Shown here: positions 4,761 through 58,689 of the stretch, piece after piece
Position numbering within the stretch: the first letter of the stretch is position 1
Layout of the letters: each line of letters opens with the position of its first letter
DNA from: Ruditapes philippinarum
Taxonomy: Eukaryota
Assembly (NCBI RefSeq): GCF_026571515.1
Contig: NW_026863663.1
Coordinates: 1-64,000 of the forward strand
DNA: 64,000 nt
Reading direction: 5' to 3'
Notes under the pieces: generated by a model
Seen by the model: the letters and a program-made list of their open reading frames with translations, nothing else
Told to the model about the DNA's origin: nothing
Databases searched by the model: none
Program-made: the position numbers and the translations under genes

Positions 4761-4767
4761 CAAAACC

Positions 4768-31911: not shown

Positions 31912-34038
31912 TAAGCATATCATATCAGTGTATCTTTTCAAATATTACATATGCGTTTGACATTCGATTTCAGATTACTTAAAACAAACAAAAAAAACAT
32001 TTGCCAGAATGCACTTAACATTTATAAAACCTTTTGATGGATGCCTTTTTGAGTAAGCACAGTACATTTCAAGCAAATACCTGCGTACCATTCATTAAAT
32101 ATTTCTTGGTAATTTTGGCGATATTTCACGACCTTTATCATATAGATTTTGGCAGTTCTTCATCTCAGTTTGCTTCTTTTCTATAGCTTAACCATGTGTT
32201 CTATTGCCTTTGATAAAGCCAAAATGTTATTTGAGTTTATGTCGCTCTTGTATCGCTGTTGTATCATATAACATAAAGCAGTTAAAGGCTTTAATTGATT
32301 ATTGAAAAAACGAAGATTTATGTTAATAATAGTCATATAAGCCTTAAATTTATACAACTGGCACATCTGTATATTAAAAGGAGGAATGGGGAGGTATTGA
32401 AACGAGTAAGTATGCACGTTACATAGGGCATGGTGAAAATTGCAGTGATTGTCTTTTCGTCATCTCTTCCATTATTCGTGTCACTCAGTTAATCACCATT
32501 ATCATCGTTACCGTAATCTCACAAATCTATATGTATCAGATGCCAGGGAAATATTTCTAGCAACTAATGATTCTTTATTACCAATCAATCAAACATAATA
32601 GCGATTTCAGGTTTTCTAGTGAGGCAATTAACTTACATTGACAGATCCTTTGCTATAAATATGTTTTCTAACACCTTTAGATAGAGGTAAAATTGCATAA
32701 TGTGACTAGTAAATCTATTAGCAATACATGCTGGCAAAGCGTAACAAATACTGTCATCTAATTAGTACTTGCTCCTAGTAATTAGGTTGCAAAACATTTA
32801 CTTGTAAAACAACAATGTTTTATTAGCTGCAGACATGCTTGGCATACATATGACTGTGTTTTGGTATTGGTAAGATGTTTTTTGGATGCTTTACCTAACA
32901 GAAGATAAAACCTTTAAACAAACAAAAATAATATGTACTTATACATGAATTATCAAAGCAACATTGTCTATCTGTGTTTGTAAGGTACAAGTAAAAAGCC
33001 GAACATCACGTGATAGTTCCAAAACCAGCATTTTATATACAATTTATGCTTGTATATTGACATATCTACCTGAAAGTCTATGCTTTTACATGTGGAAAGA
33101 CAATGTTATAAATGTTCGCGCATATTAAATTCCGCTTGCAAAAGGACAATAGCATCATTAATTATTTCTCGTTCTTGTTTTTGCGTGTTATCAAAGTAGT
33201 ACACTTCTGTCATTCTCACGGCATTCAAAAACAGTAATGACAAAACCACACGTTCGTGTTATATCATACAGCAAACACCTGCCTTTCATTTCAACTCTCA
33301 CAGGAATTACTTGTGAAGTACTCATTATACCAGGCGAGCTGGAAAACGTGTACAGAATAGCTCTTTAAAGATCTTGTCAGTGAGAGTTTCACATGCTTCG
33401 CTGCGTCCCATATTTTCTTTATCTGTTGCGATAAAGCGAGCGAGATCATTTCATGATCAATCGTTCATTCATTGTAGCATATATCATCGGCAAACATACT
33501 TGTGAGAGATTTATTACAAGACTGAAGCATTTCTTTGATATAACTGCAAATTGCCTCTTACTCGGCAACAATAAGTGTAGCCGCTTTTTTCATGAATAGA
33601 CCAGTGCTGATAGTGATAATTTTGATTGGCAGATTTCCATTAGCCAGAAAAGGCTGATAACACTGTAACAATGTAAGGATACATTAAAAATTATTACATA
33701 GATAATACACGTAGAGCTGCTGAGACAATTGATTACACAGTAAGTTTTTGATATCCTTTTAACTCTCTGAAAAATGTCAGTTAATATATTGGTGACTGTT
33801 ATGAATTTCTAGAAAAAAGTAAGGAAAATATTATTTTGTTCCACATTACATGAATGAATTGCATTAACAATCCTAGGTATTGTTGAAAACTCATTGTTTT
33901 ACATGCCAGATTAAGTAATTGGACCCCATCCTTGTTTGTACGTGACTGCTGGGGAAAAATAATGTTATGCTTAATTAAAGAGGTGACACTTTCTATATTT
34001 TTATCTGATATCGAGTTGTAAGAGCCGATTTGCAGTTA

Positions 34039-34097
34039 TATGGGTAAGAGTTCGATAAGACTCCCTACGGTCGTCTTAATACGAACTCTTACCCATA
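34039..34097. repeat. 59-bp hairpin or micro-MITE with TA ends
   Basis: tatgggtaagagttcg ... cgaactcttacccata is a perfect 16-bp inverted repeat, extended by taagac/gtctta. Confidence 0.75.
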
Positions 34098-36049
34098 CTT
34101 ATTTTACTCGTATAAAAACAGACCGCCTATGAATATTTATAAGGGATTTCATTGGTCTGGAGTGATAGTGAATCCTCATTTTAAGACGCGACATGCTAAT
34201 CATCGGTGTATTACACCATAGGGATAAGGATGTTTGACTAATGCCGTTTGAATATTTTAGTTTTAAGCATTTTATTGACAATAAAATAAATGATTAAAAT
34301 GCATTACAATACATTTTAAGGCGAAAGTCGGAATGACTAAATGTAGATTAGAATTTATTGCAAAATCAAAAGTTAAAATTATTACTCTTTTGAAAGGCAA
34401 TACATTACCTCTTTATGTCGCCATTTTTGTGTGTTTTTATTTTGTTGGAGCCCAACAATCAAAATTAAAGCGCGCAACAATATAGTTCGGTGCCAATCAA
34501 GTATTTCAGGGCAAAAACTTCCAGTGATATTTGAAAATAATATTTTTATTTCTTCATAAAAAATATACTTATATGTTTGTCAACGTTTTTGGATCATCCG
34601 ATTATGTCATTTTTAGTTTTGTACAAATGTTATATTCAACACAAACATTGTTCTCTCTCAGATTTTTTATCATAAAAGTCCATAATCTATCTTTCTAAAG
34701 CCGTTGAAAAACATGAAAAAATGAACTCATTTTCTTATTGGTACATCTTAAGAGCATGTACTACATTGTACGTTCAAAAGCAGAATTATAGATGTTTACA
34801 GATCCCTTTTAAACGGCAAAAATGTTTTCATTATTTTTGTCAAACACCCATGCGAAATATAAGCTTAAGGAGCTTTCAGTTCAGTCCTCCAAAATTTGAA
34901 CTCTTGTCCAATTAAGATTGGAAAGTCATGAAGATTACCTTTTCAGGTATGTAACCTGAGTTGTTTGTTTGATAACGTCAATATTTCTGTTCAAGTTATA
35001 ACTAACAAAGAAACAAATATATCTTTTTTTAGATATGACATGGCTAGTTTCAAAGGATTTAAGGAAAAAATCATATTTTTTTAATTAATCAGAATATGGT
35101 TAATACCAAATCTCAGTCTAAATGCATAAGGCCAAAGCCATCAAAGAAATAAAATGATTGTTGTTTAACCACTGTTAATTGATCAATTTCCTTCAACGAT
35201 AATATCTTTATTGATATCCATCTGTTCTTTTGTCATAACTATGAGTTTTAATTAATTAGTTTTCACTTTATGATAAGGAATAATGAAAACATCTCTTTAT
35301 AGAAAGTTAGCAAGTTACACGAATGCCAATAATTCCTATTGTCTTGATGAACTACTGCCTATGTTTCTTGTTCCTAAAAACTTTTCTGATTCAGTAATTA
35401 ATTCTTGATTGTTTTAAATATCAAAGACACTTCAAGGCAGATCATTTTTGTGTCAGAAGCCAACATACTATTTAATTACATGTGTACACGAATGAACTAG
35501 AGCACAACTGAATGTGTAGCCGTCAAACAGATGATGTTGCTGGCATATCGACATTGGAATAATCACGGGCCTATGAAAGAGAATTCCATGTGGAAAATTT
35601 CATCGATTTCACGTCTCTGAGAGATGTCTGAATAAATCATCAAGCATTGGGGGAAAGTTTTTTTTCTTGAGACCTTTAATGACAGATAATACATTATAAT
35701 CTAAACAGGATTTTTCTTGGACGACATGAAAGGCGGTTTTAATGTTGAGAAACGGTGTATTTAAGGTTGTTTATTATTCGTAATTTAACACCATAGAAAA
35801 CGAGTTAACCGGATCATGTTATTTGCATTTTAATATATTTTTGTTTTTTTTAGGTATTTTGCGTCATGACGAAGGTTAAATCAAAATATCATATCTTTAA
35901 AATATGTTTTTTGTCCCGGATGAAATAAATCAAATTTTATTGACGCCGCGATACACGTGAATTGGAGTAGATTCTACTGATTTAACATATCAAGTCTTAT
36001 TACGTAAACATGTCTTGTTACAACTTCTTGAGATTACATCAGACAGTAA

Positions 36050-36231
36050 TTAGGTTTACAAGTCTAACAGAGCGTGGATTCAAACCCCGTTAGGGACAAG
36101 CCGTTGTTTCCTTAAGTAAGAAACTTTACACTCATTGTTTAGTACTGGTTGGTGCAAGGAACGGATTCGATGGTGTTTCTATAAGCTTATAGCTTCCAAC
36201 ACAACCGAACTAAAATAAATTCGTATAAACT
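36050..36231 (+). mobile_element. CORE-type SINE, family B
   Basis: ggattcaaaccccg...gttgtttccttaagtaagaaactttacactcattgtttagtactggttggtgcaaggaacggattcga...ctataagcttatagcttcc; homologous to 18391-18579. Confidence 0.75.
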
Positions 36232-39200
36232 ATACCACAGTACTAACACTATTATGTAACAAGTGCTTAATTTTATTTTTCGTCTAATGATATATGTCTA
36301 GATATTTCCTTTTTCCTATGTAGGCTTACGTCTTATTTCATTAACAGTTTATGAAGCAAGTTAAACATATGTTACATATCTATGCCATGTTGTATTGCAC
36401 ACTTTGTTGTGAGTAGATACAAGTATACATTTAGGACGCTTATGTGGAGAGACCATACGTTACATACAATTATATTCGCATGACGGTAAGATTAATTGTT
36501 CGCTGCTGTTTTCGTTATGTAATCTTAATGTCAATAATGAATTCATTGAAATTTTTTTCACCTTTGATATTTGTGGTTAACCACGCAATTTCTCTTTACG
36601 GCTTGTTTTATTACCACTTTTATTATCAGCACATTCTATTGTTTTATTGTTCAAAAACAGACACATAATATTTTGAGAGAAATATCTTCTGAAATGGCAC
36701 CGCCATTTTAGTTTAATCTTCTGTATTATTTGAGAGGAAAATCAAGTATGAATAAGTAATTTCTTTTCGAGATACTTTAAGTAATCTAACCTCGCGTCGT
36801 GTGATATTTCAGCCGTTTGGAGTCCCCTGACATGTTGAGATCTCCACTTACAATTCACCATGACTTACATGAGTGGGATTAAGTATCGAATGGCGTAATT
36901 AATTTCATCGCATTCAAACTAATGATATCAATAGAACATGATGGAAAATCCCTTCCGTCGCTGTAATTCCCCGAGGTATCTAGCAAATATTTGCCGATAT
37001 AATAGATACAATAAACGGTGACAGACTTCGTGAAATTAATTGTATCGACAATATTCTCCTATCTTTTTTGGAATAAGTTATTAAAAGGAAAGTACATAAT
37101 CTAGTTATTTTGTCTAGTTATCAGTCTTTTAGGATAGCAGGCCTTTTTTCATTTTACCGAAATATGCTATTTCGTAAAAGGATGAAACGTCAGTTTGCAA
37201 TCGCCTTAATTAATAAATCAAAGAAAGTTATCGTATATGGTGACATGAATTATACATGTGTATTAACAGGAAACATTGAAAGAGTTATATAAATTGATTT
37301 TAAATGTATGACCTAATGTTAATAAAAATCGGGATTTGTAAGCATCGTAACCTGTTGTAACGCTTGATTGAGCATTAAAACAAAACATGTCAAAATATGA
37401 TTCTAAGTACAATAAATATGTGATTGTTTTTGGCGTCCGTATTTAAATATATTTGATATTTCTTAAATTATTAAATTTTAGTTTAATGCATTGCAAAAAT
37501 GTTGTTAAAATGCATACTTCATAATTGCATATTTCACCGAGCAAATCTATATTTTAACACAAGGAACTCCAACAAGTGCCTTGTTCCATATTAAAGATTT
37601 ACTCTTTTAGGTATTTACTAAATTAATATTCAGTCAGAAACTTTCTCTAGTTATATCCGCCATGCTATTATTTCTATGTATTTTCTACCTGTTTATGCTA
37701 TCGTTCACTTAAAGCTGTCAATAACTGAATTTATTTTTGGCTGAATAATTCCCAAGTTTTTACTCAATAAACCTGATATTTCCCTGTAACATTGGCAATA
37801 CATCATGACCTTTATAAGATAGACTTTAGCAATATTTAACCTAATCTCTCTTTCTCTTTCTCTCTCTCCCTCTCTCTTAATTATGTCTGTTGCCATAGAT
37901 TGAAAAAGATTTTTTTTTATTTTGATATTGCAGCTAAAATTAGAAAGTTAGTAAATTGCTATAGCCTGCTGATCTAAGTGTTACTAATTGCCAAATGGCT
38001 ATAGCTTAAGATGTTCGAATCTGACAAACATTTACATAACAGAAAAGATGTAGAAATCACGCCAACCAAAACATGGTTACATTGATATTACAAAAAACCT
38101 TGTCTTTATCATCACCTCCGTCGTACATGCCACTGAGTTAACCAACAGTTATCATCATTATGTAATCTTACACATACATCTATATGATGCCAGGCAATTG
38201 GAATATTGAAGCAAATGATAGTGCTTTGTCATCAATCAAACATCATAGAAAGTAATGATATGTTTTGTAGTTTCTAATGATGCAATTATCTTACATTAAC
38301 GACTCCTTCGTTATTATCATCTGTTTTAACACCTTTAGATAGAGCATAAAAGTGCATGATGTAACTTGCAAATCTGTTAGCATTTTTAATTACCAATAAC
38401 ACTGCATTTACAAGTACTTAACTGCGTACTATTTTATAATTATCTTTACGGAACATATACTTGGGAATGAACAATGTTTTATTAGTAGCAACTTTGCTCA
38501 ACAAGCAGCACATCACTGTGTCTAGGAATTGGCAAGATATTGCTTACATTAAAAAAGGTTATTCCTTTAATCATATGGATAAACTAGTGAGAAAATATAT
38601 AACCAAAGCAGACCTGTCAGTCTGTGTGTCTGTGTTTTGTGGTATATTCAAAAGCCTAGCTTTACTTGATATTCCTAAAGCAATATAATTACATGTATTA
38701 TATTCACTATTTGTCTTACACGACCATGTTATGTACAGATGCAAGACAACTTAAATATTATAATCTTAAATTGCTTTCAGTAACAATTACCATTTCATTA
38801 TCTTAATACCATACTTAATTGCAAAAGTACAAATATAAGGTATTCAATCACTCGTACTTGTTTCTTGTTTGCATTAATGATATATTGTAGTGCATATCTA
38901 GCATTCGAATGACATCCAAAAAAGGTAATAACAAAACCATACGATCACGCAAACACCTGCCTTTCAGGTTTTTGACATAACTGGGATGCAAATATTCCAT
39001 CCAGAGTAATGTAGCTTTTGATGTAGGTCTGGATGCACAATTTCAGATAATTCATTCGCTCGCTTATCTGGCTTCTTTAAATAATCGTTGTAATTATGCA
39101 AATTGATAAAAACAGTGAAAAGCGTTTAACTGAAAATGTATTGATTTGATTCTGACACTTTTAAAAATACTTTTTGTATATGTTGTACCTTTTAAAGTGC

Positions 39201-40189
39201 CAATTTCGAGCGGTGTAAGAATTTCAGAATTTATGGGTTTTTTAGGTTATGGATCCTTTAATTCACAGGAATGGAACTTTCTTGTCTTTAAAGTTTGATG
39301 GAAATTTTTGACTGATTATCTAATTGCTACATTAGGATAATTAGTAGATATGGTTGGCATAGTTTACACAAAAGAACACACTATTTTTTTAGCAGTCGTG
39401 CTATCTGTGAATAGAACAGGCGGGGTTAAAGTTTCCTTTCCGGAAAGTTCCATTAGCATTGACGGACTTTTGATATTAGACGAGCTGGAAAACATGCACG
39501 GAATAACACTTTTACGATATTGTCAATGAGAATTTGCCATGCTTCACTGCGGTCTATATTTTCTTGACTTGTTGCGATAACGCCATGATATTGAAAAATC
39601 CGCTCTTTCATGATCAATCGTTCATTCATTGCAGCATTTGAAAAATATACCCCCTCTGCCTGTGATTATTTGGTCTGTTGCTAAATGAATTGACCCTTCA
39701 CTGCCTGACAATTTCATCGATGGTGAACCTAATTTGTGAACTCTTTTTTACAAAGCCTAATTATTTCTTGATTCATTTCAACAATGTAGACACAGAGCCG
39801 AATCTTTTAGAACATTATTAGGATGATACTTATTTATCTAAAAAAAGAAAAGAATAATGATCATATAGATAGTTCAAACTTAAAAACTTCCCAATGTGCT
39901 TCATTGGAATAAAAATTCATGTCAAATCATGGCATCTTTTTACGGCATCGTCATAGAATTTTAATTCATGATACAGCTTGTTACATGGTGTTAATTGTTG
40001 TTGTTGTTGTTGTTGTTGTCTTTAAATATTTAGACAATATTCTCCTAAGTGCGGTGTATTACATTTTGTATTTTACTTTTTTCTTTGCCGTGTCAACATA
40101 AAGCTTTGTGCCTTTAATAATAATTTAAATGCGTATATTTTACGTTCTGAAAATAATGATTGTGTGTTTCCAGAACAACTTTAAAATTT

Positions 40190-40195
40190 CATCTG
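40190..40195. repeat. Left target-site duplication CATCTG
   Basis: Identical hexamer at 47859-47864, both directly abutting the inverted-repeat ends. Confidence 0.9.
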
Positions 40196-41969
40196 AGAAA
40201 GTATGGGCCCGCCGGTTTAGCCCCAAAAACTGCCCCGGGGCGCGGCCCCCAAATTTTGGGATTCAAATTTTTTAGAATAAACATAAATCGTTCTATTTTT
40301 GAGAAATGGGGATAAACCCTTTCCTTTTTTTTAAAGGAATGCATTATGTTCTTTTTTTAAAAATTCCCCCGGAAAAGTAAAACGGAGCTAAACTCGAAAT
40401 ACACGATTTAGGGTTGAATCGCGGACATTGGGGGTTAAAGGTCCTGGGCCCCTAAAAGGGAAGAAAAATTTAAACCCTTTTATGAAAATAAAAGGAAATT
40501 TTTGTAAATAGAAAACGTGCTTAAAAATTTTAATTTAAATAAAAAAATATTTTTGGGTTTTCAAAAAAAAATTTTTGATAAAAATATAACTCTTTTAAAC
40601 TTACCTACATTTAAAAAGGAAATGACTGTAAATTAGGAAAAGGGGTTTTTTGGGGTGACTGCGCTTTGGATCTATTTTTTAGTCGCGGAAATTTCACAAA
40701 CCACCAGGAAACTTTTTTAAATCACCCCCACGCGGGTGTCAATGAAAAAGAAAAAGGAAATTAAGTAAGTCGCCGCTCATCAAAGATTCACAATACCAAA
40801 GCGGAAACTATTTAAACCCAAAAACCCCTTTTAAATTTTCTTTAAACTAAAAAAATAATTTTTCTTTAAATTTCACAAAAAAAAATCTTTTAAACCCTTT
40901 TTCAAACGCGGGGAAACCGCCCAATTTACATCCCCAAACCTTAGCCCTAGTTTTTACATAACCTAGCGGAACTATGTTGAACAAAAACCCCCTTTATCCT
41001 TCGTTACAAAATATAGCTTTTAAATTAAATTTCTTTACCCTTTTAAAGGGCCAGGGGAACCATTAAGAAAAAAACTAAATTAACGGGGAAAAATTGCTAC
41101 GCATGCATTAACATATTTTAACACTTCATATATTGTACCGTTCCTTTTAAGTGCATGCTACGGTAAACTGATTTGCATATTTTTAAACACGGTTGCCCTT
41201 AGCAACTGGTCAAATGTTGTGATTTTTATGAACACTTCAGATTCTTATTTTTTATACAAAAATAAATTTTTTTAAATGAATACACTTATGTATAAGAAAG
41301 TTGTAAACTGATTTTAAATGAAAATTTATAATACATTTAAGCTATTAACCGGTTTTTTTATCGTTTGGGCAACCGTTTACGCTCAAAATTTTTGAGATAA
41401 AGTCGTTATAAGATAGAATAAACCGAAAGCTTTCGTTTTGACCCGGCTTCTCGATTCGATTTTCAGCCGTTTTTGAGTTATGACGCAAGAGCGATTTTAA
41501 ACCCTAAATTGCGAAAAGTCAATAAAAACGTTAGAAACTTTTTAAACCAATCGATTCGTCTCGTCGCGCTGATTAAGAAAATATATAGTTTTATGGGTTT
41601 ATCTTTTTACCGTTTTCGAGTAATTTCGAGTTTAAAGTCACCGGAAGTGACGTCACAGAAATTTCAAAATCGATTTCTTCGTTATTACTTGACCGAATAT
41701 ATACGTGTTTGGTATCGTTGGAAAGCATTTTACCACACCTGTTACCGGACGCTATTCAAAAAGCCATTGGACCGGAAACTGAAATCACTGAAGCGTAAAA
41801 AACGTGTTTTCTGTACCACGTCCCGGACCGAACTAAGGCGTGTTTGGTATCAAACGAAATGTCTTAAGCCGCCTCTTTATGAATACGGACTAAAATCGAA
41901 ATTAAAATCACTCATGCGTAAAAATCATTAAAATGAACTAAAAAAAGCTTACCCCCAGTCTTTACTCCT
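40196..41969 (+). repeat. Left terminal inverted repeat
   Basis: Reverse complement of 46201-47858. Near-identical from about 41100 to 41969 and recognisable but homopolymer-distorted over 40196-41100. The match ends at aagcttacccccagtctttactcct. Confidence 0.93.
41641..41656 (+). promoter_or_regulatory. Composite ETS-CRE motif CCGGAAGTGACGTCAC in the TIR (mirror copy at 46510-46525)
   Basis: Exact overlap of the ETS core CCGGAAGT and the CRE palindrome TGACGTCA; function untested. Confidence 0.45.
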
Positions 41970-43128
41970 TGCCTATCAAACTATTTATGACAAGTTACTA
42001 TAGGCCTATCGTTAAACGGTCCAGTTACGACAGGTTTAAACCCCGGTATTGCTATTTTTTGATTAGGCCAATGAAAATTGAAGAAACGAGGTTTTTTTAA
42101 ACCATTTTTTTTAAAGTTCATAAAACCCTTAGATTTATATTGCCGTTTTGATAAAGATCTCTGCGAGTAGATACAGAAAATGTATTATTATATGGATATA
42201 CTTTTACTGTTTTCTGAGATAGGAGAAGTTTCAATATGGGCAGACCAAAATCAACTCATGCGGAAAAAAGCGCATAAACTTTTTTTTCGTTTATGAACGA
42301 AACATAGTTATGTTTGGTATAAAATTGGAAGGTCTTGAGGGAAGTAAAAATTTTAGTCACGGCGATAAAACCCCGGAGGGTGAAATCCCCAAATTTGCGC
42401 AAAAAAAATATATTTTTTTGGTTACAAAGGGGCAACCAAAAATACGAAAAATGATTTTTAATTTTTTAAACTACCAATTGAAAGAACATTTTAAAAACCC
42501 CCTTTTTAAATTAAACACCCCACTTATCGTTTCGTTTTCCCAACTGTTACAGGGGTTAAATTACGAAACAGCGTTTTTTTAAACCCAAAATTTTTTAAAA
42601 AGTTTAAAAAAAACCCCTTAATTTTTTATACCGTTAAAAAAGATCTGACGAGTAGATTAAAAAATGTATAAGTTTTTTGGGTCTATTTTTATAAAGGTTA
42701 CTGGGGGATATTACAGATATAGCCCTTTATTTAAATTTTAAAACCCCCCAAAGGGTTAAAATAATGCGTTATTGCACTACATTGTTCAAAAAAATATTCA
42801 AACGACTGGTGGTGTTCTTTATTTATGGGTCGATTTTATCCATCTTGGTATCAAATTAAAAGGTATTTAAGAGTTCATTCAAACGCTGTTGATAATAAAG
42901 TTCATACTGGAAGTCAAAATCACTACTCATGCGTTAAATGGACAATTTTCTCCGCTTATTTCTTGGACAATAAACGATGGGTATGTTGCATTATATCAAA
43001 CGAAAGGTCTTGACAAATGCGACAAGCTGAAACTAACAAACCCGCAAGTGAAACCAATCACGCGTAAAAAATCATTAAAATAACTAAAAATACAAGATTT
43101 AACCCCAACCTTTAACTCCTCGCTATCT

Positions 43129-43217
43129 AAATCGGGCAATGGAAATGAAATTGCTAACGGTTAACGTAATAAATGGAGTAAAAGGAAGCGTTCGGATTGG
43201 TCACTGATAAGACAGTA
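43129..43217 (+). repeat. Inner inverted-repeat segment, pairing with 46117-46200
   Basis: aataaatggagtaaaag(g)aagcgttc.gatt.gtcactgataagacagta is present in inverted orientation in both arms. Confidence 0.85.
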
Positions 43218-43288
43218 TTCTGATTGACTCGAAAAGCAGGTTGGACAACCGTTCGCTTGCAATGTGTTAAAAAATACATAAAACAAGT

Positions 43289-43526
43289 GAGGAGGAGGAG
43301 GAGGTGGAGGAGGAGGAGGTGGGAGGAGGAGGAGGAGGAGGAGGTGAAGGAGGAGGAGGAGGGAAGGGAGGGGAGAAGGTGAAGAAGGTGGAGGAGGAAA
43401 AAGAAGAAGCAGGAGGGGTAGGAGGTGTAGGAGGAAGAGGAGGAGGAGGAGGTGGAGAAGGAGGAGGAGGAGGAGAAGAAGGAGGGGAGGAGGAGGAGGA
43501 GGTGGTGGCGGAGGAGAAGGAAAGGA
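43289..43526 (+). repeat. (GGA)n polypurine tract upstream of the gene block
   Basis: Direct reading; about 240 nt of almost pure G/A. Confidence 0.92.
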
Positions 43527-43620
43527 ATTTTTTTTTCCTGTATCTGCAAACGTAAGAAATCGTTAAATAAACTTGTAAGAAGGCAGATTTCTTCGGCTTT
43601 TATAAATCTTGCTAACTAAA

Positions 43621-45046
43621 ATGAATAAGTGTTCTGTATGTAATCAGGTGTTCTCTAGGGCTTGACAACATGCGAAGACATGAACGTTATATGCATAGCA
43701 GTAAACGACACAGTTTAAAAAGTAATTCTCTATTACAAGAAGTAACTCAAGGGAAAACTTCAGAAAAGATGACATTTCACCACCCTTTTTCCATGGTTGT
43801 TTCCGGACCCAGTGGTAGTGGAAAAAACAGAATGGACCAGAACACTGCTGTTATCTAACCTAGTACGTCAGCCCGCCTGAACGCATCATATGGTGTTTCG
43901 GACAATGGCAACCTCTGTACGATGAACTTCAACGTAGAATACCTTGGATAGAATTTGTACGAGGTATCCCCGACTACTTGAATAATCCCGAGTACATCAA
44001 CGCCAGCAAAAGGAAACTTTTTGATCGTTTTTGACGATTTGATGACAGAGGCCAAATGTGACCAGAGAATCGCCGATCTTTTTACCAAAGGCAGTCACCA
44101 CAGGAACATATCTATCGTGTATCTGACTCAAAATTTATTTCCTCAAGGAAAAGCCTGCAGAGATATCGCGTTGAATACGCAGTACCTAGTATTATTCAAT
44201 AACCCTATTGACAGACAGCAGGTGGCTACGTTAGCGAGGAGAATATATCCTTCCTCCTATAACATCTTTATGAAACGCTTCGAACGAGCGACATCGAGAC
44301 CTCACGGTTATTTGGTAATAGATCTTAAATCCAGTACACCTGAACATAATCGTTTACGTAATGACATTTTTGAGGCCAATAATCCTGAACTTAGAAAACG
44401 GATGGATATACCTCCGGAGAACCAGTTACACGGTGAAGGTAATTCGTTTGACACGACGATAAATGATGATGATGATGATGATGAAGATGCAAAATGATGA
44501 TGAAGATGCAGATGATGATACTGATAAAGAGCATATATAGAGGGTGGTGATAGAGGTGTAAAGAGACAAGCCTTTTTTATGGGACCTCCTGGTAAGCGTA
44601 TAAAAGAAGAGCTCAAAGAAGAACGCAAAACGTCATGACATATGGGATAGAAGATTTCAAAAGCCTTTACGACAGTCTTGTAAAGAACAATTTAAAGACG
44701 GGCTAAACAGTTACATAGATCAAGAGTACTCTTTTGATGAGGCTTATGCTCGCACTGCTAATGATGCGTTGCCACATTTGAGAAAGAAGATGAGACAAAA
44801 TTATGCCCAGTTTTCTGATTGACTTTTACGCATTACAAGAGGACCCCACTCAGCAACAAATACTCCAGTCAGCGAAGAAACTTAGACATCAGCACGACAT
44901 GACCATTGAAGAATCAATCCAACAAGCCGTTAAACTTAGAAAAGACCGGTTTTGAGGCGTTATGGCCTAATCACGACATCAAGGATTTTAATGGTGAGAA
45001 TAATAAAGATGATGACAATGAAGATCACAAATCAGATGGAAAATAA
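43621..45046 (+). CDS. C2H2 zinc finger + A32/FtsK-HerA-type DNA packaging ATPase + acidic linker + helical C-terminal domain (~471 aa after removing 10 homopolymer +1 bases)
   Basis: Reconstructed MNKCSVCNQVFSRLDNMRRHERYMH (C2H2), HPFSMVVSGPSGSGKT (Walker A), LIVFDDLM (Walker B), LFTKGSHHRNISIVYLTQNLF and PHGYLVIDL, typical of Polinton ATPases. The ATPase call is firm; the fusions depend on frameshift correction. Confidence 0.85.
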
Positions 45047-45092
45047 AAATATCGTAAGAATGATCTTTGCTCCTTTACTTTCAAAACACAAC

Positions 45093-45480
45093 ATGGGTTC
45101 CATAGAGGTGTACGATCATAAACAACAAAAATGGGTGCCGTATATAGATGACCCAGATAAATGGTATCAGCATTTTAAAGATTTGAGAGACGGTTACGTG
45201 ACACCCGATCATAGAGGCCGGTACATTATAGGTAGCGGTAATTCGCGTAGAAGGCTCGTGACACTAGAAACAAAGCTCAAAGAAACGGAGAAAAAGCTTA
45301 AAGAAACGGAAGAGAAGCTTCAAAATGCACAACGCCCTGTGGTTAATATGGTTAGCCCCGTGGCTCAAGCGGTTGAAATGGCAAAGTCGGAAGTAAAAAC
45401 GATTACGTGATTCCAATATAGAAACGTCGGCACCTAAGAAGCGTAAAACGGATATTGACTGGACTCGGTTCACTTTCTAA
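45093..45480 (+). CDS. Small Polinton-associated protein with coiled coil and basic tail (~128 aa after one frameshift correction)
   Basis: MGSIEVYDHKQQKWVPYIDDPDKWYQHF...IIGSG...LETKLKETEKKLKETEEKLQ...VNMVSPVAQAVEMAKSEVKR...APKKRKTDIDWTRFTF; the stop lies 1 nt before the protease ATG. Confidence 0.65.
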
Positions 45481-45481
45481 A

Positions 45482-45917
45482 ATGGATAATTACCAGCTAG
45501 AAAATATATTGAAAAGATACCCAGTGACAGTGTGTGCGGCTGATGAAATTCGTAAACAAAACGGAAGATTTGTGATTTCAAACACAGATACGAGTAACGG
45601 ACCGGGAAAACATTGGGTAGTTTTCTATTTTCCTAGACACGGACCTTACGAATATTTCGACTCGGTTGGAAATAGTCCAGAAAAGCTATGGCGTGGGATT
45701 TGATAAGATACTTAACAAGAAATATCTCAGAAACTACGGCCAACTACAACAACTTTCGTCTAATGTGTGCGGCCTCTACTGCGCATACTATGTCATAAAA
45801 CGATATCAGGGAAAGACTTTGAAAAACATCGTCAAAGAATTTGATCCGTATCAGAAGAAGCACAATGATCGTTCAGTAGTGTTTAAAATGAAGAAACTAA
45901 TTAGAAAAAAGAAGTGA
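45482..45917 (+). CDS. Adenain-like (adenovirus/Polinton-type) cysteine protease (~144 aa after one frameshift correction at 45681-45684)
   Basis: NTDTSNGPGKHWVVFY (His), YEYFDSVG (Asp), QLQQLSSNVCGLYC (Gln, Cys); catalytic set intact. Confidence 0.92.
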
Positions 45918-45960
45918 CAAAACAAGTATATCACTAGTTTTAAAACAATGTTCTGTATGA

Positions 45961-46002
45961 AATAAAAATATAAATTACCATGTGTTTTGTTTTTTATTTA
46001 TT
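45961..46002. terminator. Probable bidirectional polyadenylation region
   Basis: AATAAA at 45961 followed by a GT/T-rich tract, with TTTATT (minus-strand AATAAA) at 45993 and 45997. Confidence 0.5.
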
Positions 46003-47086
46003 CCCATAAGAATAGCCTTATGCTACTGCTATTGCCCCGTAATACAAGACAACTAGTCCCCGCCTCTCTCTGTTTAGTCCAATCATGTTGCAGTTAGACT
46101 AATGAAAATGTGCAAGTACTGTCTTATCAGTGACTAATCAGAACGCTTCTTTTACTCCATTTATTACGATTAACCGTAGCGATTCATTCATTTCCGATTT
46201 AGGAGTAAAGACTGGGGGTAAGCTTATTTTAGTTATTTTAATGATTTTTACGCATGAGTGATTTTAATTTTCGATTTTAGTCCGTATTCATAAAGAGCGG
46301 CTTGAGACATTTCGTTTGATACCAAACACGCCTAAAATCGGTCCAGGCGTGGTACAGAAAACACGTTTTTACGCTTCAGTGATTTCAGTTCCGGTCCAAT
46401 GGCTTTTTAAAAAGCGTCAGGTAACAGGTGTGGTAAAATGCTTTCCAACGATACCAAACACGTATATATTCGGTCAAGTAATAACGAAGAAATCGATTTT
46501 GAAATTTCTGTGACGTCACTTCCGGTGACTTTAAACTCGAATTACTCGAAAACGGTAAAAGATAAACCCATAAAACTATATATTTTCTTAATCAGCGCGA
46601 CGAGACGAATCGATTGGAAAACAGTTCTAACGTTTTTATTGACTTTCGCAATTTAGGGTTTAAAATCGCTCTTGCGTCATAACTCAAAAACGGCTGAAAA
46701 TCGAATCGAGAACCCCGGGTCAAAACGAAAGCTTTCGGTTTATTCTATCTTATAACGACTTTATCTCGAAAATTTTGAGCGTAAACGGTTGCCCAAACGA
46801 TAAAAAACCGGTTTATAGCTTAAATGTATTATAAATTTCATTTAAAATCAGTTTACAACTTTCTTATACATAAGTTATTCATTTAAAATTTATTTTTGTA
46901 TAAAAAATAAGAATCTGAAGTGTTCATAAAAATCACAACATTTGACCAGTTGCTAAGGGCAACCGTGTTTAAAATATGCAATCAGTTTACCGTAGCATGC
47001 ACTTAAAAGGAACGGTACAATATATGAAGTGTTAAAATATGTTAATGCATGCGTAGCAATTTCTCGTTAATGAGTTTTTACTTAAT

Positions 47087-47348
47087 GGTCGCTGCATTTA
47101 AAAGGATAAGATTAATGAAAAGCTATATTTATTAACGAAGGATAAAGGGTTTTTGTTCAACATAGTTCCGCTAGGTATTGTAAATCTAGACTAAGTGGCG
47201 ACTGTACTTGACGGTCGCTGCGTTTGAAAGGATAATAGATTCTTTTGTGATTAATGAAAAGTTATATTTAGTAACGAAGGATAAAGGGTTTTTGTTCAAA
47301 ATAGTTCCGCTAGGTATTGTGAATCTAGACTGAGCGGCGACTGTACTT
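47087..47348. repeat. Tandem duplication of about 126/136 bp within the TIR
   Basis: ggtcgctgc...taacgaaggataaagggtttttgttcaa.atagttccgctaggtattgt.aatctagact.ag.ggcgactgtactt occurs twice (starts 47087 and 47213). Confidence 0.9.
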
Positions 47349-47716
47349 AATGCCTTTTTCTTTCATTGACACCCGCGTGGGGCTGATGAAATAGCTCCTG
47401 GTGGTTGTGAAATACCGCGACTAAAAATAGATCATGCGCAGTCTACAAGAACGTTACGCTATGACAGTCATTTCCTTACTAAATGTAGGTAAGTAAACGA
47501 GTTATATTTTATAAATATTATTTATTTTGAACATATTAAAAAAAAACTATTTGTTTTTTTATTTATAAATTAAGCACGTATCTATTTACAAACATTTCTT
47601 TTATCTGTCATAATGTTAATTATCTCTCCGTCTAGGGCCGAGGACCTGACCCTCAATGTCCGCGATTCAAGCCCTAAATCGTGTATACGAGTCAGCTCCG
47701 TATACTTCCGGGAGAT

Positions 47717-47802
47717 TAAAAATAGAACGATAATGTCATTCTAAAAATAGACGGATGATCACATTCTCAAAATAGAACGATGATGTCATTCTAAAAATAG
47801 AA
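47717..47802. repeat. Subterminal 25-bp tandem repeats (about 3.4 copies)
   Basis: Units of consensus taaaaatagaacgatgatgtcattc at 47717, 47742, 47767 and a partial copy at 47792. Confidence 0.9.
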
Positions 47803-47858
47803 TCCAATATGGCGCCGCGCATGCGCAGTCGTGGCCCTAAACCGGCGCCTATACTACT

Positions 47859-47864
47859 CATCTG
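47859..47864. repeat. Right target-site duplication CATCTG
   Basis: Matches 40190-40195. Confidence 0.9.
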
Positions 47865-50800
47865 ATATAAAACAAGCACTTTATACAAATGTATTTTTAA
47901 TGCATATTTTTCTACAGCAGATTTTGTTTTATCATAAACCACCATGATCGATTTACTTTTTCCAAAACCCATAGAAAACATCTTAAGACAAAATAAAAGA
48001 CATTTGTGATTTATTACAACTTACTTTTGCTTTATTTGTCTAAAGAATGACAGTATGTACTTATATTTTATAAGCAGGATAATAAAATAGTTTACAAATC
48101 ATTTTAGAAATTTCCCTGAAAAAAAGTTCTTGTCCAAAGACATGTTGTCATTATAACAAATAAAGTCTGAATGACATGCTGATGAATTACAAGTCTGTTA
48201 CCTTAGTGATTATATTTCTCATTAGAAACGAAGACGACAACTACAGCAACGTTGATGATGATGGTGTCAATTTTCCGTCCAACTTATCATTTACAAAGTA
48301 CCAAACAAAATATATTCATGTGATATAAAAAGAGGTCCCCGCCCCCCACCTCGCGAATACCGGTGACAATTGGCAAAAAAGCGCCATCTTGAGAAGGGTT
48401 TAGGTCAGGGAATCGCATTGTAACGGTTGGCTGAAAAAAGTGCAGGGAAAACCGTATGAATCACTTTATACATGAGGTGATTGGATGAGAATGGGGTAAT
48501 TTTAAGTATAAAAACTAATTTAAAAAGTAACACTACATTGTTTTCTGAAGAAAATGAAATATTTCATGAGTCTCTATGATAATTTTGACTTTGAAGTCAT
48601 TTTGCAAAAAAATTGGTTGGCTACCACTATATAACAGGAACATTTTTATGTGTCAGGCATTTCATTCTGCTAGAAAAATCACCTCTTTAGCATGAAAACT
48701 CAATTTTAAGGTAGGATTAGGGACCATTTCTTATAATGTTAGTCTATGGAAATATCAATGTGAGTGTCTGACCTTTATAAGATTTGGAATACCACAATTT
48801 CACTCTAGCCCTTACGCCACCCTGACAAATCCGTTTTCTAACGGCTGTTAATATATCACATTTCCTTCAGCGATAATATATTAATTTAATTTACTGGTTA
48901 TCTGTTCATAAAAAAACTAAGGAGTATACTGTTGGTGATTATGCATAAACAATGAAAGCATTTTTCTATAACAAAAAAAGAAATGCCACTGATTATCCTT
49001 ATCATAATAAATAACGGAAAAGGCATTGTTTCTCGTCTACTAAGCCAAATTCTGTCAGTTTTAGAAATCAAAATCACACGAACATTGTTCGTCACGAAGC
49101 TATCACATGTGGACGCGCATTACTGATGATTAAGCTGGCATATTGACATTGGAATAATCACGGGCACATGCGGAAAATTTCATCGTTTTCACGTCAGTGA
49201 TCAATGATATGAATCAATCATCAAGCATTGAGTTCTCGAGACCTTCTGTTGACAGATGATGCACTAAAATCTAAACACAAGAGGAAAGAGACAACAACAA
49301 GAGTACTGTATATTAAACTTATATGTATATTATATATATATCTTGATACTATAGATATCTGGCCTGATTATTTTTCGATGATCCATTAGCATTTCGTAAT
49401 TTGCTTAATGACATTGGAACTTATAAGGTTGATCAAGTTTGTTTTATTTAAGTTAGTTATGTTTTGTCCTTTATAGAGATTTATGTTAACAATTAGCCAC
49501 ATTTTAATGATGCTGAAAAGCACTTGAATTGCCGATTTTCGACATCATTCAGCTAATGAAGTAGACCCCCCCCCCCCCGCCAAAAAAACAAAAAAAGACT
49601 TTTCAACTTGTATTACATAATTCTAAACGTGTTACCATATCACCGTGTTAACTTCTTATAGTATTAATAAAATACACATTATAATAACACCGCTAAAACG
49701 TACTTCTTTGTTTAATAATATATGTTAAAAATGTTTCATTCACGATTGATTTAGTCTGCGTACAAAGATTAACAATCGTTACATTTCTTTCCTGTGACGT
49801 ATTTCGTCTTTTCTTCACACGTAGTTTGTTGAAAATATTTAGTACTATAAGTCAAATATACTTATACCTTTACGCATAAAAATATACATATCCGTTAAAG
49901 ATCTTCGTTTGCTGTTTTTATCTTCTAGTAATTTTTATGTCAATTTTATGCTTTGTAATGAATTCATATCAACATGTTAAACGATGATATTTGCATACAA
50001 TAAAACAGTGTACCGCGGTAAACTTTGTGATGTCTCTTTATTATTTGTTTTATTACCACTTTAATAATCATCTCATTTTATTGTTTTATTGTTCAATACA
50101 GACACTTAACATATGACGATAGATATAATGAAATGCCACAATATATTTATTATCGCCATATAAATTTAATCTTTTTTCATTTGAGAAGAAAAGATTTCAT
50201 GAATAGGTTATCATTTTAAGAGCAATGTTAATAAACACGCAGTGTGATATTTCAGTCGGTAAGAGCTGTGCTTACAATTTACCATGATTGTTATAACATG
50301 CCTATGTGCTATTAAGTTTCGAATGGTAATCTAAATAAATAATATAGATCTATAGAACACGAAGGAAAAACTCCAATCGCTGTGTTTACCTGTGGTATCT
50401 TTCTAATGCACTAATAGATACAAAAAAATGACAAAACCATCGAATAAATTATATTGACAGTATCCACTTGTTCATTTGGTTCTTTTTTGTTTGTTTGTTG
50501 TTTTTATTTTTATTTGAATAAGGTATGTAAATGAACACTCATAATCTAGTTATTTAATGTACAAATGCTCCTCTGTTTAGAAAAGTAGTACTGAAAGGAA
50601 AATGTTATAACTTAAACCAATGGAAAGCCAAGATATCTTATTGTATCCATTATTTTAGGTTTGAAATTGAGTTCATAACATCTCAGATAAATGACCGTTT
50701 CGTTTGAGGTATATATTTTGGCAGTTTTTCACGTCATCTCGCCTTTTAAATATATATAAACCTTATTCCTAATGCAATGGTCAAGCGAAATTAAAATGTC

Positions 50801-51009
50801 GCTCTGGTAGCAACGAACTTAAAACGGCTAGTAAATAACTTTAATTGCTGGAGTTTCTTTCTTCACAATGACCAAAATGACCTATATCAATATGTACAAA
50901 ACTCTGAAACAATTTAGGAAGAGCGATTAAGCCACAGCTAAGCAACAGAATTCATGTTGATGTTGGAATTACAATGATCTATCTTTATGTCATTATATTC
51001 TCCGGCATC

Positions 51010-54000
51010 ATGAATGCCATTCAGTTCACCACCATTATCGACATAATCATTACTGTAATCTTACAAATATATCTATTAGATGTCAGAGAAACATTTTGTT
51101 GAAAATAATGCTCTTTTATTACATATCAGCCAAACATCACAGATAGTAACACTCTGTTTCATGATTTCTAATGAAGCAATTAACTCACATTGATGAGTTT
51201 TGCGCTAATTAACATCTATTCTTACAACAACAGATAGAGGGTAAAAGTGCATACAGTTATAAGCTTATTACTTTAGAAGCACTGTGAGCCTGACTATATG
51301 TATTAATGTTGCGGAACGTCTATTTTGACAAAAACAATGTTTAATTAGGTACATACCTGCTCGACAAGCATATCATTACCTTTAGAAATTTGCAAAATAT
51401 TGCTTAGATGTGTTATTTTGAAGGTGATAATTTCTTTAATATTATAAAAATATGTAACAGCAGCACTGTCAGTCTGGTTTAACGAAGTAAATAAGAGCCA
51501 AACATCCCGCAACCGTGTTAATGCATGTATTATAAGATTTATATGAAGGTGACTATACTTTTCACACTTCTAGCTTGCAGGTCCATGACATCAACGAGCA
51601 GCAACATAATTCAATTATGCTACAAGTAACAATTCCCTCTTCCAAATTTCAAAGGCAGGATAAATTTATCATGCAGAATTTAAATGAAGTACTCATCAAA
51701 TTTTCTTATTTGATTACTTTTTTGTCAAGTGAATTAGTGAAATAAGAAGAATTCTTGCATTCTAACGGCAGTGAAAACAGTTATGACAAAATCACGCATT
51801 CACGTTATGTATATCAAACAACAAACATCTGCCGTTCATCTTACTCTCATACAAGGCGATCGCAGAAAAGCTCTTTAACGATATTGTCAATGAGGGGTTC
51901 ACATGCTTCACTGCGGTCCATATTTTCTTGATCTGTTGTGATAAAGTTGAAAACCCCCCATCTGAAAATCTCCATCTTTCAATGATCAATCATCCATTCA
52001 TTGAAACATTGAATGAGAATGAACATTTTCTCATCTCCATGTGATTATTTGGTCTGTAACTAAATGAAGTCACCCTCCACTGCCTGGTAATTTGAACGCG
52101 GCGATCGTACTTGTAAGAAATTTTATTACAATTTTAGAATAGTTCATTGATTTATTTCCGTCATATGAAAACAGACCGCCTATGAATATTTATAAGTGAT
52201 TGTATTGTTGATCCTAATTTTGAGATGCAACGGTTTAATACGCCATTAGGATAATGATGATTGAATAAAATTGTTTGATTATTTTTAATTTTAAGCGATT
52301 TTGGAACAATAAAAGGGAAAAAATGAAGTGTTAACTGATTTAATGGCCAAGAAAAGGGAGGGGGAAGACATTTTATTATCATTATAACATGTATATGCTT
52401 TAATATTTGCTGAAAAAAATAAAAATTTGTTACATGTGTTAGCTTTTTATTTACATTCAATTTGTTTTCATTATATCTACGTTAAAGCCTTGTCTGATAT
52501 CCCAAAAAACCCTTCTTTTAAGATGTTACGCACCAGAATATATTTTCACAGTTCATATATATCTTGGTGTTTTATTTGTAATAAGTTACACTTCCGCGTT
52601 TTCATGAGTTATCCCATACTTATCAAATATCTAGATTTACTCATACAAAATCAGCACAAGATATCATATTTTTCACTGCGAAGTGCAATTTATATTGCCT
52701 ATTTATTTGAATCTTTGTCATACTTAGAGAATATCTACCAGGTTTAATCATTAAAATGATTAAAGAGAACTGTGCAAATATCTTTAAAATTTTCAATAGG
52801 CTTTAATGAATTAGATTTAATATTTCCTTAAATGTAATTATAACTTCATTGACATTTACTTTTGTAGAGAATTATTGCGATATTTCCTTAATAACTTTGA
52901 AATTAACAGGTGATATTTTCTACTTAATGACATAACAACTATTTAATACTTATATTTGGATTAACAACACTAATGAAAAATAAATTGTATTTTGATATGA
53001 AAGGAGTTTAGCGATATTTTAAGCTCCTTTTTTATAAACAAGTCAGATAATCACATACTTTATAATTATGACAGGTAAGTATTCGTTATATCAGTTTCAA
53101 AACCTTTGATCATGTTGCAGACGATAATAATGATTTCAGGAAATTAAAACTGAAATAAAATGTATGAATTTCAAATAACTCAAAATATTGATTGGTAAAA
53201 TTGGTATTAACCAAACCAAATTAGATAAAATTTTATTTTATTGTGACATTAAAATGGAACAATAATGATACATTTTATTGACATTAAAATACAGACAGTT
53301 CCTTTACCACAATATATTATTGCTTTCTTTTTTTTTGTTTTTATTTTTTTTAAATGCTTTTTTCTATGACTATGACCAAGTCTCCATTCATCATTTTCAA
53401 TGATCTTAATGGATGTCTGATATTAATAAATAATACAACTTCCATTTATCAATGTATTCCAGCGACAAAGTTGTTCATAACACAGACATACATTCCCTTG
53501 AGAATCTCCCCCAATTTACAGAGCTATGATGTAAATGATAAACAATCATTTTCCATAACTTTTAAACTGTTTAATTTAAATTGTATATTCATTGAGATGC
53601 ATATATCTAAGTTTAATATCACAATCAATGATTGTTGATTAACGTCACATTATTCTTGATATACGTATATACATATGAAATCACTTGTACCAGGAAACGT
53701 TTAATAAGACATTTCATTTTTTCTATTAATCTTTTAAAAAAGAATATGTAAACGACATTAGCATATTAATGGCAAAATCAATATTTTATGATGACATTCA
53801 TTATTTTAAAGATCTTGGAAATGGCATTAGCGTTTACTGTAAATCTTTGAAAATTTTAAGATTATTTACTTTAAATGTTTTTTACTATCATGTTCTCAAT
53901 TACCTTAGCATTTGTTCCATTTTTGAGTCTTTGATTTGAAGCACACATTACCTATTCCATTTTCTTTTCTATAACAAAATCTTTAATTACTGCTGTGTGT

Positions 54001-57000
54001 TCGAATGCCGCAACGAATTTCTGAGGAAACTATCAAGCTAGCTTACGAAACGTCAGGTGAGCATGTCTGAAATAATTCACAGAGGGGTACCTTAGATCGT
54101 CCTCCACCAATAAAGCTGAAAAGTCGCCGTATGACCTTAAAAGTGTCGGTATGTCTTAAAACCCAACAAACAAAATGAACTAACATACAAAACTATTTAT
54201 CATTGAAAACACAATATGTATGTTTTGTTTTTCATTGCAATATTCTTCTTTTTGATTTATGAGATATGTCTTTAACTTCTTTGATGTGCAAGTAACTGTG
54301 CTTTTAATAACCCTAATCGATATATCATATTGTTTACTGCCTATATTTCTGTCAAACAACTTTGTTTCATCTGATAGCATCTTTTTTGGTGAAAATTTGA
54401 CAAATGTATTGTTCAATTTAACGATTTTGAAATAGTTTTTCTCTAAAAGATAGATTTGATTTTTATCAATGGCATATCCATGATTAATATACTATTTCAG
54501 AATTGTAAAGCGATGTAATATACAACTCTGGCTGATTTATGACAAGACAGATTTAATTTGTATTTCTAAAGAACGATACAATGTTATTGTATTTTATTCT
54601 AGATTATTTTCAAAACATTTTGCAAACTTCTGGGAAAGGGTGTCATAATCTTTGTCTAATATTTAATGTAAGGCATTCCGAGCTTTCAGTTCGGGGCTCC
54701 AAATCTTTGAACTCGCTTCCAGTACAGACTGGATGAGACAAATCTTTAATCTAAATGTATTGAGACATAAGCCACGTTAGTGATACAATGACCGTTGCGT
54801 ATCGTCTATTAATTAATCAGTTTCCGTCAAAGATAATTTTACAGTTCATATGTCCGTAGCCAAAAGCTTTAATTAATAAGCATACATTTCATGATTATGA
54901 AATATTAATGAAAACGGCGTTCTATATCAAGAAACACAATTGCCGACAATTCTGACGAAACACTAAAAAAACTCCTTATTTCTACGCAGCTTTCTGGTTC
55001 TAATTATGTAATCAAGTTATGTTTGTTTTGAATATCAAAATCACTTCAAGGCAGACGGCGTTGTTCGTCACAAAGCCGTCATACTATTAAATTACAAGTG
55101 AACATAATTAAACAAGAATATTACTGATGATTTAGCCGGCTGCTGGCATATCGACATTAGAACAATCACGGGTCTATGAATAGTGAATTCCATGTGGAAA
55201 ATTTCATCGATTTCACGTCAGTGAGAGATGGCTGAATAAATCATAGAGCATTAAGTTAAATGGTTTTTCTCGAGACTTTTTGATGACAGGTAAAGCATTA
55301 AAATTTAAACGGATATCTTTAACAAAAAAAATAGTGTATGGGGTTGAGGATCCGGTATATTACTTTACTGTATTGCGTTTTATGATACGGTAGAGAACAT
55401 TTCGATCAAAATTTTTATTCAATACAATTTATTTCGTAGTTTTCCTTATTACCAAAGTGATTAAACTCAAATATGTAATATCTGTCACTTTATTCACAGA
55501 TGAAAGATAACAGTAATATCATAAATACTTAAGGATATCTAGAAAATAAATGACATTAAATTGAGTCTGTAAAACACTTACCGTTTTCCTTTCATTTAAA
55601 TAATTCCACATTTCCATTTGTATTACGTAACTCTGTATATATATCACTAAAGCATTCCTCATACAGTAAATAGGTAAATATTTTTATAATAAAAAAAACA
55701 ACAAAAATAACAAAACAGAACAAAAACCAAACAAACAAAAACACTACAATATGCATTCTTGCATTCTATTTTGAGATTCTGATTTGTTTAAAATGAAATG
55801 TGCCTTTATTAATTCACAAGAATAAAGATTTATTAAACGAGTATTTAGTGTACATATTTTATGTGTTTGTATGTGGGAAGTTATGACTTCCCTATCTGAA
55901 AGATATGTCTTGTCTATCTATGTTGCATGCTTACATATTTTACCATTACATGTCCTTTGATGTTTACATGAAAAGAACATACTTAACATGAAATAATTAG
56001 CGTAAGATTGGTTTTCCCTTTTTAAATGAATACATTTAAGTTTTTAACCTTTGATATTTTACTTACATTTAAACATATTGTGGTTAACCACGAGATGTTT
56101 TTATAGCTTGTTTATCACCAGTACATTCAATTGTTTTATTGTTCAATCCAGACACTTAACTTATTGAGATAAATTTAATGAAATGTCATTGCGAGTCATT
56201 GTTTATTATTGCCATATTTATTAAATCATTTTTATTTCGAGATAGAAAATAAATCATGAAGAAGTTATGATTTTTTTTTAGTTTTCTTCAAGTTATCAAA
56301 CCTTGTGTCGTCGTGTGATATTACAGACCGTCAGTGGCACTGAGATATTACAAGCTCCGCTTTAAATTTGTCATGATTTCTAATAAAGTTTCGATTGTAT
56401 CAAAACTAATGATATTAATAGAACAAATTGAGGGGGAAAATCCACTAGTTGGTACTCCTTGAGACATATATTATATTGGATGCAGTAAAGCCGAAAGTTC
56501 TCCGTCGAATTTATTTATCTGAAGCTTTCTTCAAGTCTTTTCAAATGTATTATTTCAAAGAAATACAGAATTTAGTTATTTATTGTGCGTCAGGGTGGTA
56601 ATGTTTTCAACGTTTCAACATACAAACCGGAAAGAAAATGATACAGTTAAATACAAGGTTCGCATAAGTACAATATTTTTTCAAAACATTTCTTATGTTG
56701 ATAAAAATAAAGCTGCAGCCATCGTGATTCCCTGGGGCATGCTAATAGCTGATGAAATCAAAGACGAATGTCTTCTATCGAATAATCTGTATTGACAGTT
56801 TCCTTGTGTCTTATCTAATACGATATATCTAAGAAAGTCTGCATTATCTAGTTATGTTATGTAAAAAAAAATACTCCTCTTGTCAGATGCAGTAAGCGTT
56901 TTTATACTATCACTTTTATTTAAACTGAGTCAAAAGAATTCCTATTACTTAAATTATCAATAGTTTGATTTTTGCATCTGACAAACATATTAGATAATGT

Positions 57001-58546: not shown

Positions 58547-58588
58547 TTTTATTGTTCAAGTTTTATTGTTCAAGTTTTATTGTTCAAG
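58547..58588. repeat. Perfect 14-bp tandem repeat x3 (ttttattgttcaag)
   Basis: Direct reading. Confidence 0.9.
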
Positions 58589-58689
58589 TAGTTAGTTGTA
58601 CGAATTGTATTGGTTTAGAGAAGTCATGTAATTGGTCTAACATATAAAATCCATTTCAATGCAAAGTACAATATTAAAATAAATCCGTC

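Follow-up and report, generated by a model that had tools for sequence, protein, structure and literature searches.

The first 64,000 nucleotides of contig NW_026863663.1 of Ruditapes philippinarum (assembly GCF_026571515.1; hereafter the window) contain a short Polinton-like element that occupies positions 40196–47858 (7,663 bp) and is enclosed by two copies of CATCTG (40190–40195 and 47859–47864). This 6-bp target site duplication (TSD), proposed in a preliminary description of the same DNA, is perfect on both sides and falls within the 5–6 bp made by Polintons/Mavericks. The right end reads exactly ACTACT (AGTAGT on the minus strand), whereas the left end shows the same motif in noisy form, and the AGTAGT-type terminus reported earlier is thus exact on the right only. 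Such (AGT)2//(ACT)2-type termini, together with long terminal inverted repeats (TIRs), are features of Polintons/Mavericks. Three genes, all on the plus strand, lie within 43621–45917 and encode a packaging ATPase, a small protein of the PW position and a maturation protease, as expected from the tight 2.3-kb block of ATPase, small open reading frame (ORF) and protease first described here. The element does not qualify as a member of an autonomous Polinton family, yet it is Polinton-like in cis.

The left TIR (40196–41969, plus strand), delimited by blastn and arm comparison, and the right TIR (46201–47858) are 85% identical overall (blastn 40200–41969 versus 47855–46201, E=0) and make up 44.8% of the 7,663-bp element, in agreement with the earlier estimate of about 45%. 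The outer 0.9 kb of the left TIR is 75.5% identical to the right arm, and across their inner 0.88 kb the TIRs differ by 13 substitutions and are 95.9% identical. The previously drawn limits of 46201–47858 were recovered, but an inner continuation had been overlooked: the right TIR, on the minus strand and ending in ACTACT, extends inward to 46117 (46117–47858), and by blastn its segment 46117–46264 pairs in inverted orientation, at 80%, with the inner end of the left arm (43051–43217, plus strand). The left arm therefore has an additional 1.1 kb, absent from the right arm, made up of degenerate TIR-like sub-repeats (41970–43050, plus strand, by sequence comparison) and edged by a 72% direct repeat (41848–41980 and 42994–43130). 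This extra segment has no protein family match, and ORFs within it or within the TIRs, considered as genes, were assigned to no family. Homopolymer-compressed blast returned nothing outside the TIRs but low-complexity noise, and an Rfam search gave 0 matches. The TIR at 46201–47858 is CpG-rich (observed/expected 1.69 versus 0.88 in the flanks) and contains what we take to be NRF1-, ETS- and CRE-like sites; the left TIR holds a CCGGAAGTGACGTCA site at 41641 that is presumably ETS-CRE-like. A 139-bp internal tandem duplication lies at 47079–47348, inside the right TIR.

Homologue searches indicate that the first gene (43621–45046, plus strand) encodes a C2H2 zinc finger, an A32-like packaging ATPase, an acidic linker and a helical C-terminal domain, a fusion of ~470 aa whose zinc finger had gone unremarked. 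One fragment matched Pox_A32 in Pfam (E=0.009), and an unbroken fragment used as query retrieved 133 longer relatives. Of the best 120 of these, 119 matched the core and 84 the Walker A region by tblastn, and 44 possess the zinc finger. That the ATPase is followed by a fourth, distinct gene was considered and rejected, the sequence in question being the ATPase C-terminal domain, each segment of which is matched by 44–51 of the same 120 homologues. The element thus encodes an A32/FtsK-like packaging ATPase of the Polinton/Maverick kind, although the gene is frameshifted as written. Upstream lies a GGA-rich purine tract (43288–43525, plus strand; 238 bp, 94% A+G), a candidate deletion junction and/or promoter region; a comparable tract is implied upstream of the database relatives P0083 and P0088 and is seen in a second short element, L001, described below. 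A CGTAAGA motif precedes both the ATPase (43550–43557) and the PW gene (45052–45059) and is a possible promoter motif. As a signal, the more general WCGTMAGA remains a lead only, with 8 matches in the window against 4.4 expected and 8 of 100 shuffles reaching this number. One ATPase relative was placed in a bin of Ca. Thiodiazotropha, presumably a clam symbiont, and an NNVRR-like peptide occurs in the mis-called ends of several relatives.

The second gene (45093–45480, plus strand) encodes a small conserved Polinton protein, for which the 50%-identity representatives include 125 relatives (E≤0.001). Pfam, the Atlas and fold comparison were all uninformative for it; its predicted fold (predicted local distance difference test, pLDDT, 76.5) found no Foldseek match in BFVD at E≤0.001 and no Atlas match at 0.9. 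Its neighbours were instead read from the mis-called protein ends of database relatives. An N-terminal extension is present in 35 of 124 relatives, and when 12 extensions were compared with the minor-capsid-like end of P0147, four scored at 0/300 shuffles, two at 1/300 and one at 6/300, with five unmatched. The Atlas lead for the minor-capsid label is PF21507 V18-19 (0.92, 19% of members). P0256, P0258, P0214 and P0239 read on from PW into major-capsid-like sequence; in P0256 and P0258 this is a label that we take from motifs, and for which nothing informative came from Pfam, PHROGs, PDB sequences, a supplement or an AlphaFold model (pLDDT 31.6). The minor-capsid-like extensions and major-capsid-like continuations together identify the small gene as that of the PW position, between the minor and major capsid genes (PMC8097293). 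The third gene (45482–45917, plus strand) follows the PW stop at a distance of 1 bp, and its motifs and relatives make it an adenain-like (Peptidase_C5) maturation protease. The His/Asp/Gln/Cys motifs are present, and the relatives P0124 (E=1.9e-5) and P0257 match Peptidase_C5, while the window protease fragments and P0121 themselves have no such match in Pfam.

The core replication, integration and capsid genes were not found. Seven tblastn queries derived from relatives (two pPolB, two major capsid, one minor capsid and two small ORFs) had no match at E≤1 in the element, their sole match being a chance one of 10 aa outside it. Among the 42 protein fragments from 40196–43620, 41 had no Pfam match and one had a sub-cutoff match to a domain of unknown function. 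Protein-primed PolB (pPolB) is thus absent from the results of both tblastn queries and of Pfam; for an RVE integrase, for which no tblastn query was used, the 42 upstream fragments gave no Pfam match and leave no coding room. The capsid parts of P0256, P0258 and P0196, among which the major-capsid label is assumed from motifs, were also unmatched by tblastn. At 7,663 bp the element is shorter than the ~13–25 kb of autonomous Polintons, and the earlier claim that polymerase, integrase and capsids would have to be supplied in trans follows from this gene content. No truncated neighbour genes were seen at the flanks of the ATPase-PW-protease block.

The three genes had been called apparently intact, which is wrong for the sequence as written: frameshift-aware alignment reveals 11 frameshifts and 0 nonsense codons. 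Nine fall in the ATPase, near 43660, 43820, 43870, 44010, 44490, 44530, 44630, 44810 and 44950, the same nine breaks appearing with each of three ATPase relatives; the PW gene is broken near 45400 and the protease near 45680. A homopolymer run of at least 3 lies no further than 6 bp from each of the 11 breaks (background 56%, p=0.002); for 8 of the 11 the run is at least 4 (background 22%, p=0.0005). An independent database record, P0121, is an unbroken 144-aa protease identical to the window protease at 143 of 144 residues. Because this unbroken sibling is nearly identical and all breaks lie at homopolymer runs, the frameshifts are probably sequencing errors. Since the copy is frameshifted as assembled and its intactness is deduced from the sibling record alone, the earlier argument that a pure parasite would not keep intact genes is weak.

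The element interrupts one copy of a duplicated host unit of ~6 kb. Host markers lie 1,846 bp apart in an empty paralogous unit and 9,373 bp apart here, or 1,704 bp without the element and one TSD, and the element is a clean insertion into the duplicated unit. The tandem host units, at 70–80% identity, lie at about 32100–38000, 38200–50600, 50700–56500 and 57000–62500 of the window. The poor polishing of TIR-bearing sequence remarked on previously is borne out in the left arm: in the outer 0.9 kb, the left side has 70 extra-base events and the right side 18; a homopolymer run is lengthened in 49 of the 70, and the excess left-arm bases are long-read noise. Equal noise is found in the first 6.5 kb of the window, which has no TIR match, and the noise is therefore no indicator of copy number. 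That region (1–6500) shows strong homopolymer inflation (mean run 1.87 versus 1.43 in clean flanks) and is unpolished sequence unrelated to the element. The sequence is AT-rich (GC about 31%). Elsewhere in the window are an older inverted-repeat element at 25867–30597 (~4.7 kb, arms of ~280 bp at 79–88%) in which no long ORF was seen, and a short dispersed repeat forming an inverted pair at 18387–18514 and 36082–36222 (86–88%).

The order ATPase, PW, protease could also be followed in relatives. Read in another frame, the tail of the ATPase P0013 continues into the N-terminal end of all four PW relatives tested (21–23 of 24 residues, 0 of 500 shuffles). Against the extension alone it matches 12–13 of 14 residues in the two PW relatives tested, compared with 4 of 15 for the control extension of P0143. 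Three of the four PW relatives matched by P0013 form a 99/99 clade with P0257 in a 65-row PW tree (P0164 and P0244 left out; neighbour labels assigned partly by eye). P0257 is a natural read-through from PW into protease, and P0136 (86–90%) likewise reads from PW into protease. The window PW is 54% identical to that of P0257 and has no well-supported placement in the tree. Because the same gene order occurs in a lineage whose PW is ~55% identical, the block appears to be an old arrangement, as judged from proteins recorded separately and not on a single contig. The neighbours of closely related PW paralogs are of two kinds, capsid (P0256, P0258, P0143) and ATPase/protease (the P0257 clade), and P0256 and P0257 are 86% identical across their first 50 residues. 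The recurrence of the block in the ~55% lineage, with no truncated genes at its flanks, lends some support to the preliminary description in its suggestion of more than random decay.

Several further comparisons were set aside. A minor-capsid 3′ vestige in the window's ATPase-PW spacer is unsupported (6 of 11 residues, reached by 94 of 500 shuffles), and homology of this spacer to that of P0013 is not significant (6 of 13 residues, 106 of 500 shuffles), the two spacers having an identical four-codon stretch in one frame. Adjacency of PW and protease as read from the protease N-terminal extensions of P0124 and P0128 was weak (one of six tests at 1/300 shuffles, the others at 8–118/300) and was not relied on, and an acidic-tail reading of the P0179 and P0206 extensions did not rise above shuffles. 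Vertebrate Mavericks have two modules, ppolb-atp-pm-pz and int-mCP-PW-MCP-pro (PMC8097293). Passing from this canonical order to the present block needs several rearrangements, not necessarily in this copy. Were a full-length parent to carry the block beside its right TIR, one deletion ending at the purine tract would suffice to yield the element.

A scan of GTDB provided 7 loci (L001–L007) out of 60 candidate stretches, and these are probably stray eukaryotic DNA in bacterial bins. In five of the seven, an ORF that we take from its motifs to be pPolB-like lies immediately upstream of the ATPase; L002, L003, L004, L006 and L007 are Polinton-like pPolB-ATPase contigs in GTDB representative bacterial bins. 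L001 contains a second short element (L001:3163–8546, 5,384 bp) with AGTAGT/ACTACT ends, an ACTATG TSD and TIRs of 622 bp at 99% identity, plus a 111-bp inner part. Its genes, a zinc-finger ATPase and two divergent small Polinton-type genes, end at the TIRs and form a set unlike that of the window element; a purine-rich tract lies at its centre, and it has no pPolB or capsid match. Of the GTDB ATPases, the five given a tree placement (L001, L002, L003, L004 and L006) all lie outside the window ATPase group (99/98), which makes L001 an independent case, and one whose companion genes differ. The same assembly contains L005, a rearranged relative at 88–97%. The L001 contig is filed as bacterial, yet animal-type collagen-triple-helix genes flank the element, and a TTAA-flanked inverted-repeat insertion of 1.09 kb (L001:3785–4870), presumably Kolobok-like, is nested within its left TIR. 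The TIRs of the window element had no sister match elsewhere in the window or in the seven fetched loci.

We hypothesize, at roughly even confidence, that the element is a helper-dependent, non-autonomous Polinton retaining one terminal transcription unit. It would have kept both long TIRs and the terminal ATPase-PW-protease block, already present in its lineage, and would have lost the polymerase, integrase and capsid genes, most simply by deletion from the inner end of the left TIR to the purine tract. The AGTAGT ends and the panhandle formed by the TIRs could then be recognised by the protein-primed polymerase and integrase of a co-resident Polinton, and these helper enzymes would replicate the short genome and integrate it, duplicating 6 bp of the target. 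If the three genes were functional at insertion, their packaging and maturation proteins could have been supplied in trans, as by a defective-interfering or satellite genome. The element is recent, and it may be mobile, may use a helper and may be expressed. Several observations weigh against the helper-dependent reading. A single copy was seen, so that mobility of the short form is a deduction; a full-length parent with the ATPase-PW-protease order was not seen, and in relatives this link was assembled from separate proteins and not from a single contig. Neither the P0013 spacer nor a capsid vestige could be recognised above chance in the window's ATPase-PW spacer. As the outcome of a random deletion the element is tidy: no truncated gene is left as a trace, and the three genes and both TIRs retain their full length. 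Finally, the frameshifts could be real.

In one alternative, which we regard as unlikely, an invertebrate Polinton lineage turned multipartite: the element would be its packaging-and-maturation segment, with polymerase, integrase and capsids on sister segments that have the same TIRs, each segment integrating with a 6-bp duplication and no monopartite master existing. An old, conserved block with tight junctions (1 bp from PW stop to protease start) would suit such a segment, as would L001, a second compact form with another gene set whose genes end at the TIRs, and very long TIRs would provide common cis signals, much as the segments of bidnaviruses have common termini (PMC8502044). Close PW paralogs in capsid-flanked and ATPase/protease-flanked contexts also fit, but are equally compatible with one full-length genome; L001 and L005 appear rearranged rather than stable, no sister segment with these TIRs is present in the window or the seven fetched loci, and 96% of vertebrate Maverick loci are defective (PMC8097293).

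A comparably doubtful account holds that the insertion was of a full-length Polinton, whose interior then disappeared in one unique deletion, and that the short form has itself never moved. One event from 43217 to the purine tract would be enough if the parent had the block at its right end, the 1.1-kb repeat-mediated indel between the arms demonstrates local rearrangement, and Polinton remnants are common according to a nematode study (10.1101/2024.01.15.575659). Little time is left for this history, since the inner TIRs are 95.9% identical, their 13 substitutions lying in noisy sequence; moreover, gene stubs are absent and L001 exists as an independent short form. Least probable, and in our view quite improbable, is an assembly artefact in which long TIRs and noisy long reads collapsed the interior of a longer element. 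The left arm and genes are indeed poorly polished, but the TSD copies match, the host flanks are colinear, the gene junctions are the same as in relatives, and L001 is also short with TIRs that are 99% identical.

Short non-autonomous Polinton families exist in Repbase. The literature searched contained no description of a multipartite Polinton or of this gene block; Repbase, subscription journals and bioRxiv supplements may hold such families. Polinton-type regions are reported to be very abundant in bivalve genomes. A coral survey demands MCP, mCP and ATPase in regions of at least 10 kb (PMC11131425), and the nematode study demands pPolB and integrase within 20 kb (10.1101/2024.01.15.575659). 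Because published screens need several hallmark genes together, short TSD-flanked gene-bearing forms like this element and L001 escape them. Should such forms be mobile satellites, they would demonstrate trans action of the Polinton machinery and might behave as defective-interfering genomes. Should they be segments, an integrating double-stranded DNA virus lineage has become segmented, and a multipartite Polinton would be a segmented, integrating double-jelly-roll virus invisible to multi-hallmark screens of at least 10 kb. If the element is a one-off deletion, it is ordinary.

Among known systems, the element most resembles Polintons/Mavericks (polintoviruses, adintoviruses) in its 6-bp TSD, termini, TIRs, A32-like ATPase, PW-position gene and protease. 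Vertebrate Mavericks are 12.7–24.6 kb long, with TIRs of 46–1,447 bp and an (AGT)2//(ACT)2 end motif (PMC8097293); by comparison, the element measures 7.7 kb, has TIRs of ~1.7 kb, lacks pPolB, integrase and capsids, joins genes of both canonical modules on one strand and bears a zinc finger and a helical tail on its ATPase. Bidnaviridae, whose bipartite genomes encode a Polinton-related pPolB, offer a precedent for common segment termini among pPolB relatives. They have single-stranded DNA and parvovirus-like capsids, and differ in that they do not integrate with TSDs and that no sister segment was seen here in the window and seven loci. The mobile polB-lacking Polintons reported in butterflies (10.1101/2025.02.07.637071) are likewise TIR-flanked, lack core enzymes and must be mobilised in trans, as holds also for the short non-autonomous families of Repbase. 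The butterfly cases are drawn from variants larger than 12 kb and carry transposable element cargo, whereas the 7.7-kb element is additionally without integrase and either capsid, and it retains three conserved genes as a block. Tlr1 elements and transpovirons are linear TIR-bearing Polinton derivatives that have lost part of the core genes; they carry an SF1 helicase, and Tlr1 retains capsids and integrase without a protease (PMC5499653), the opposite of the element described here.

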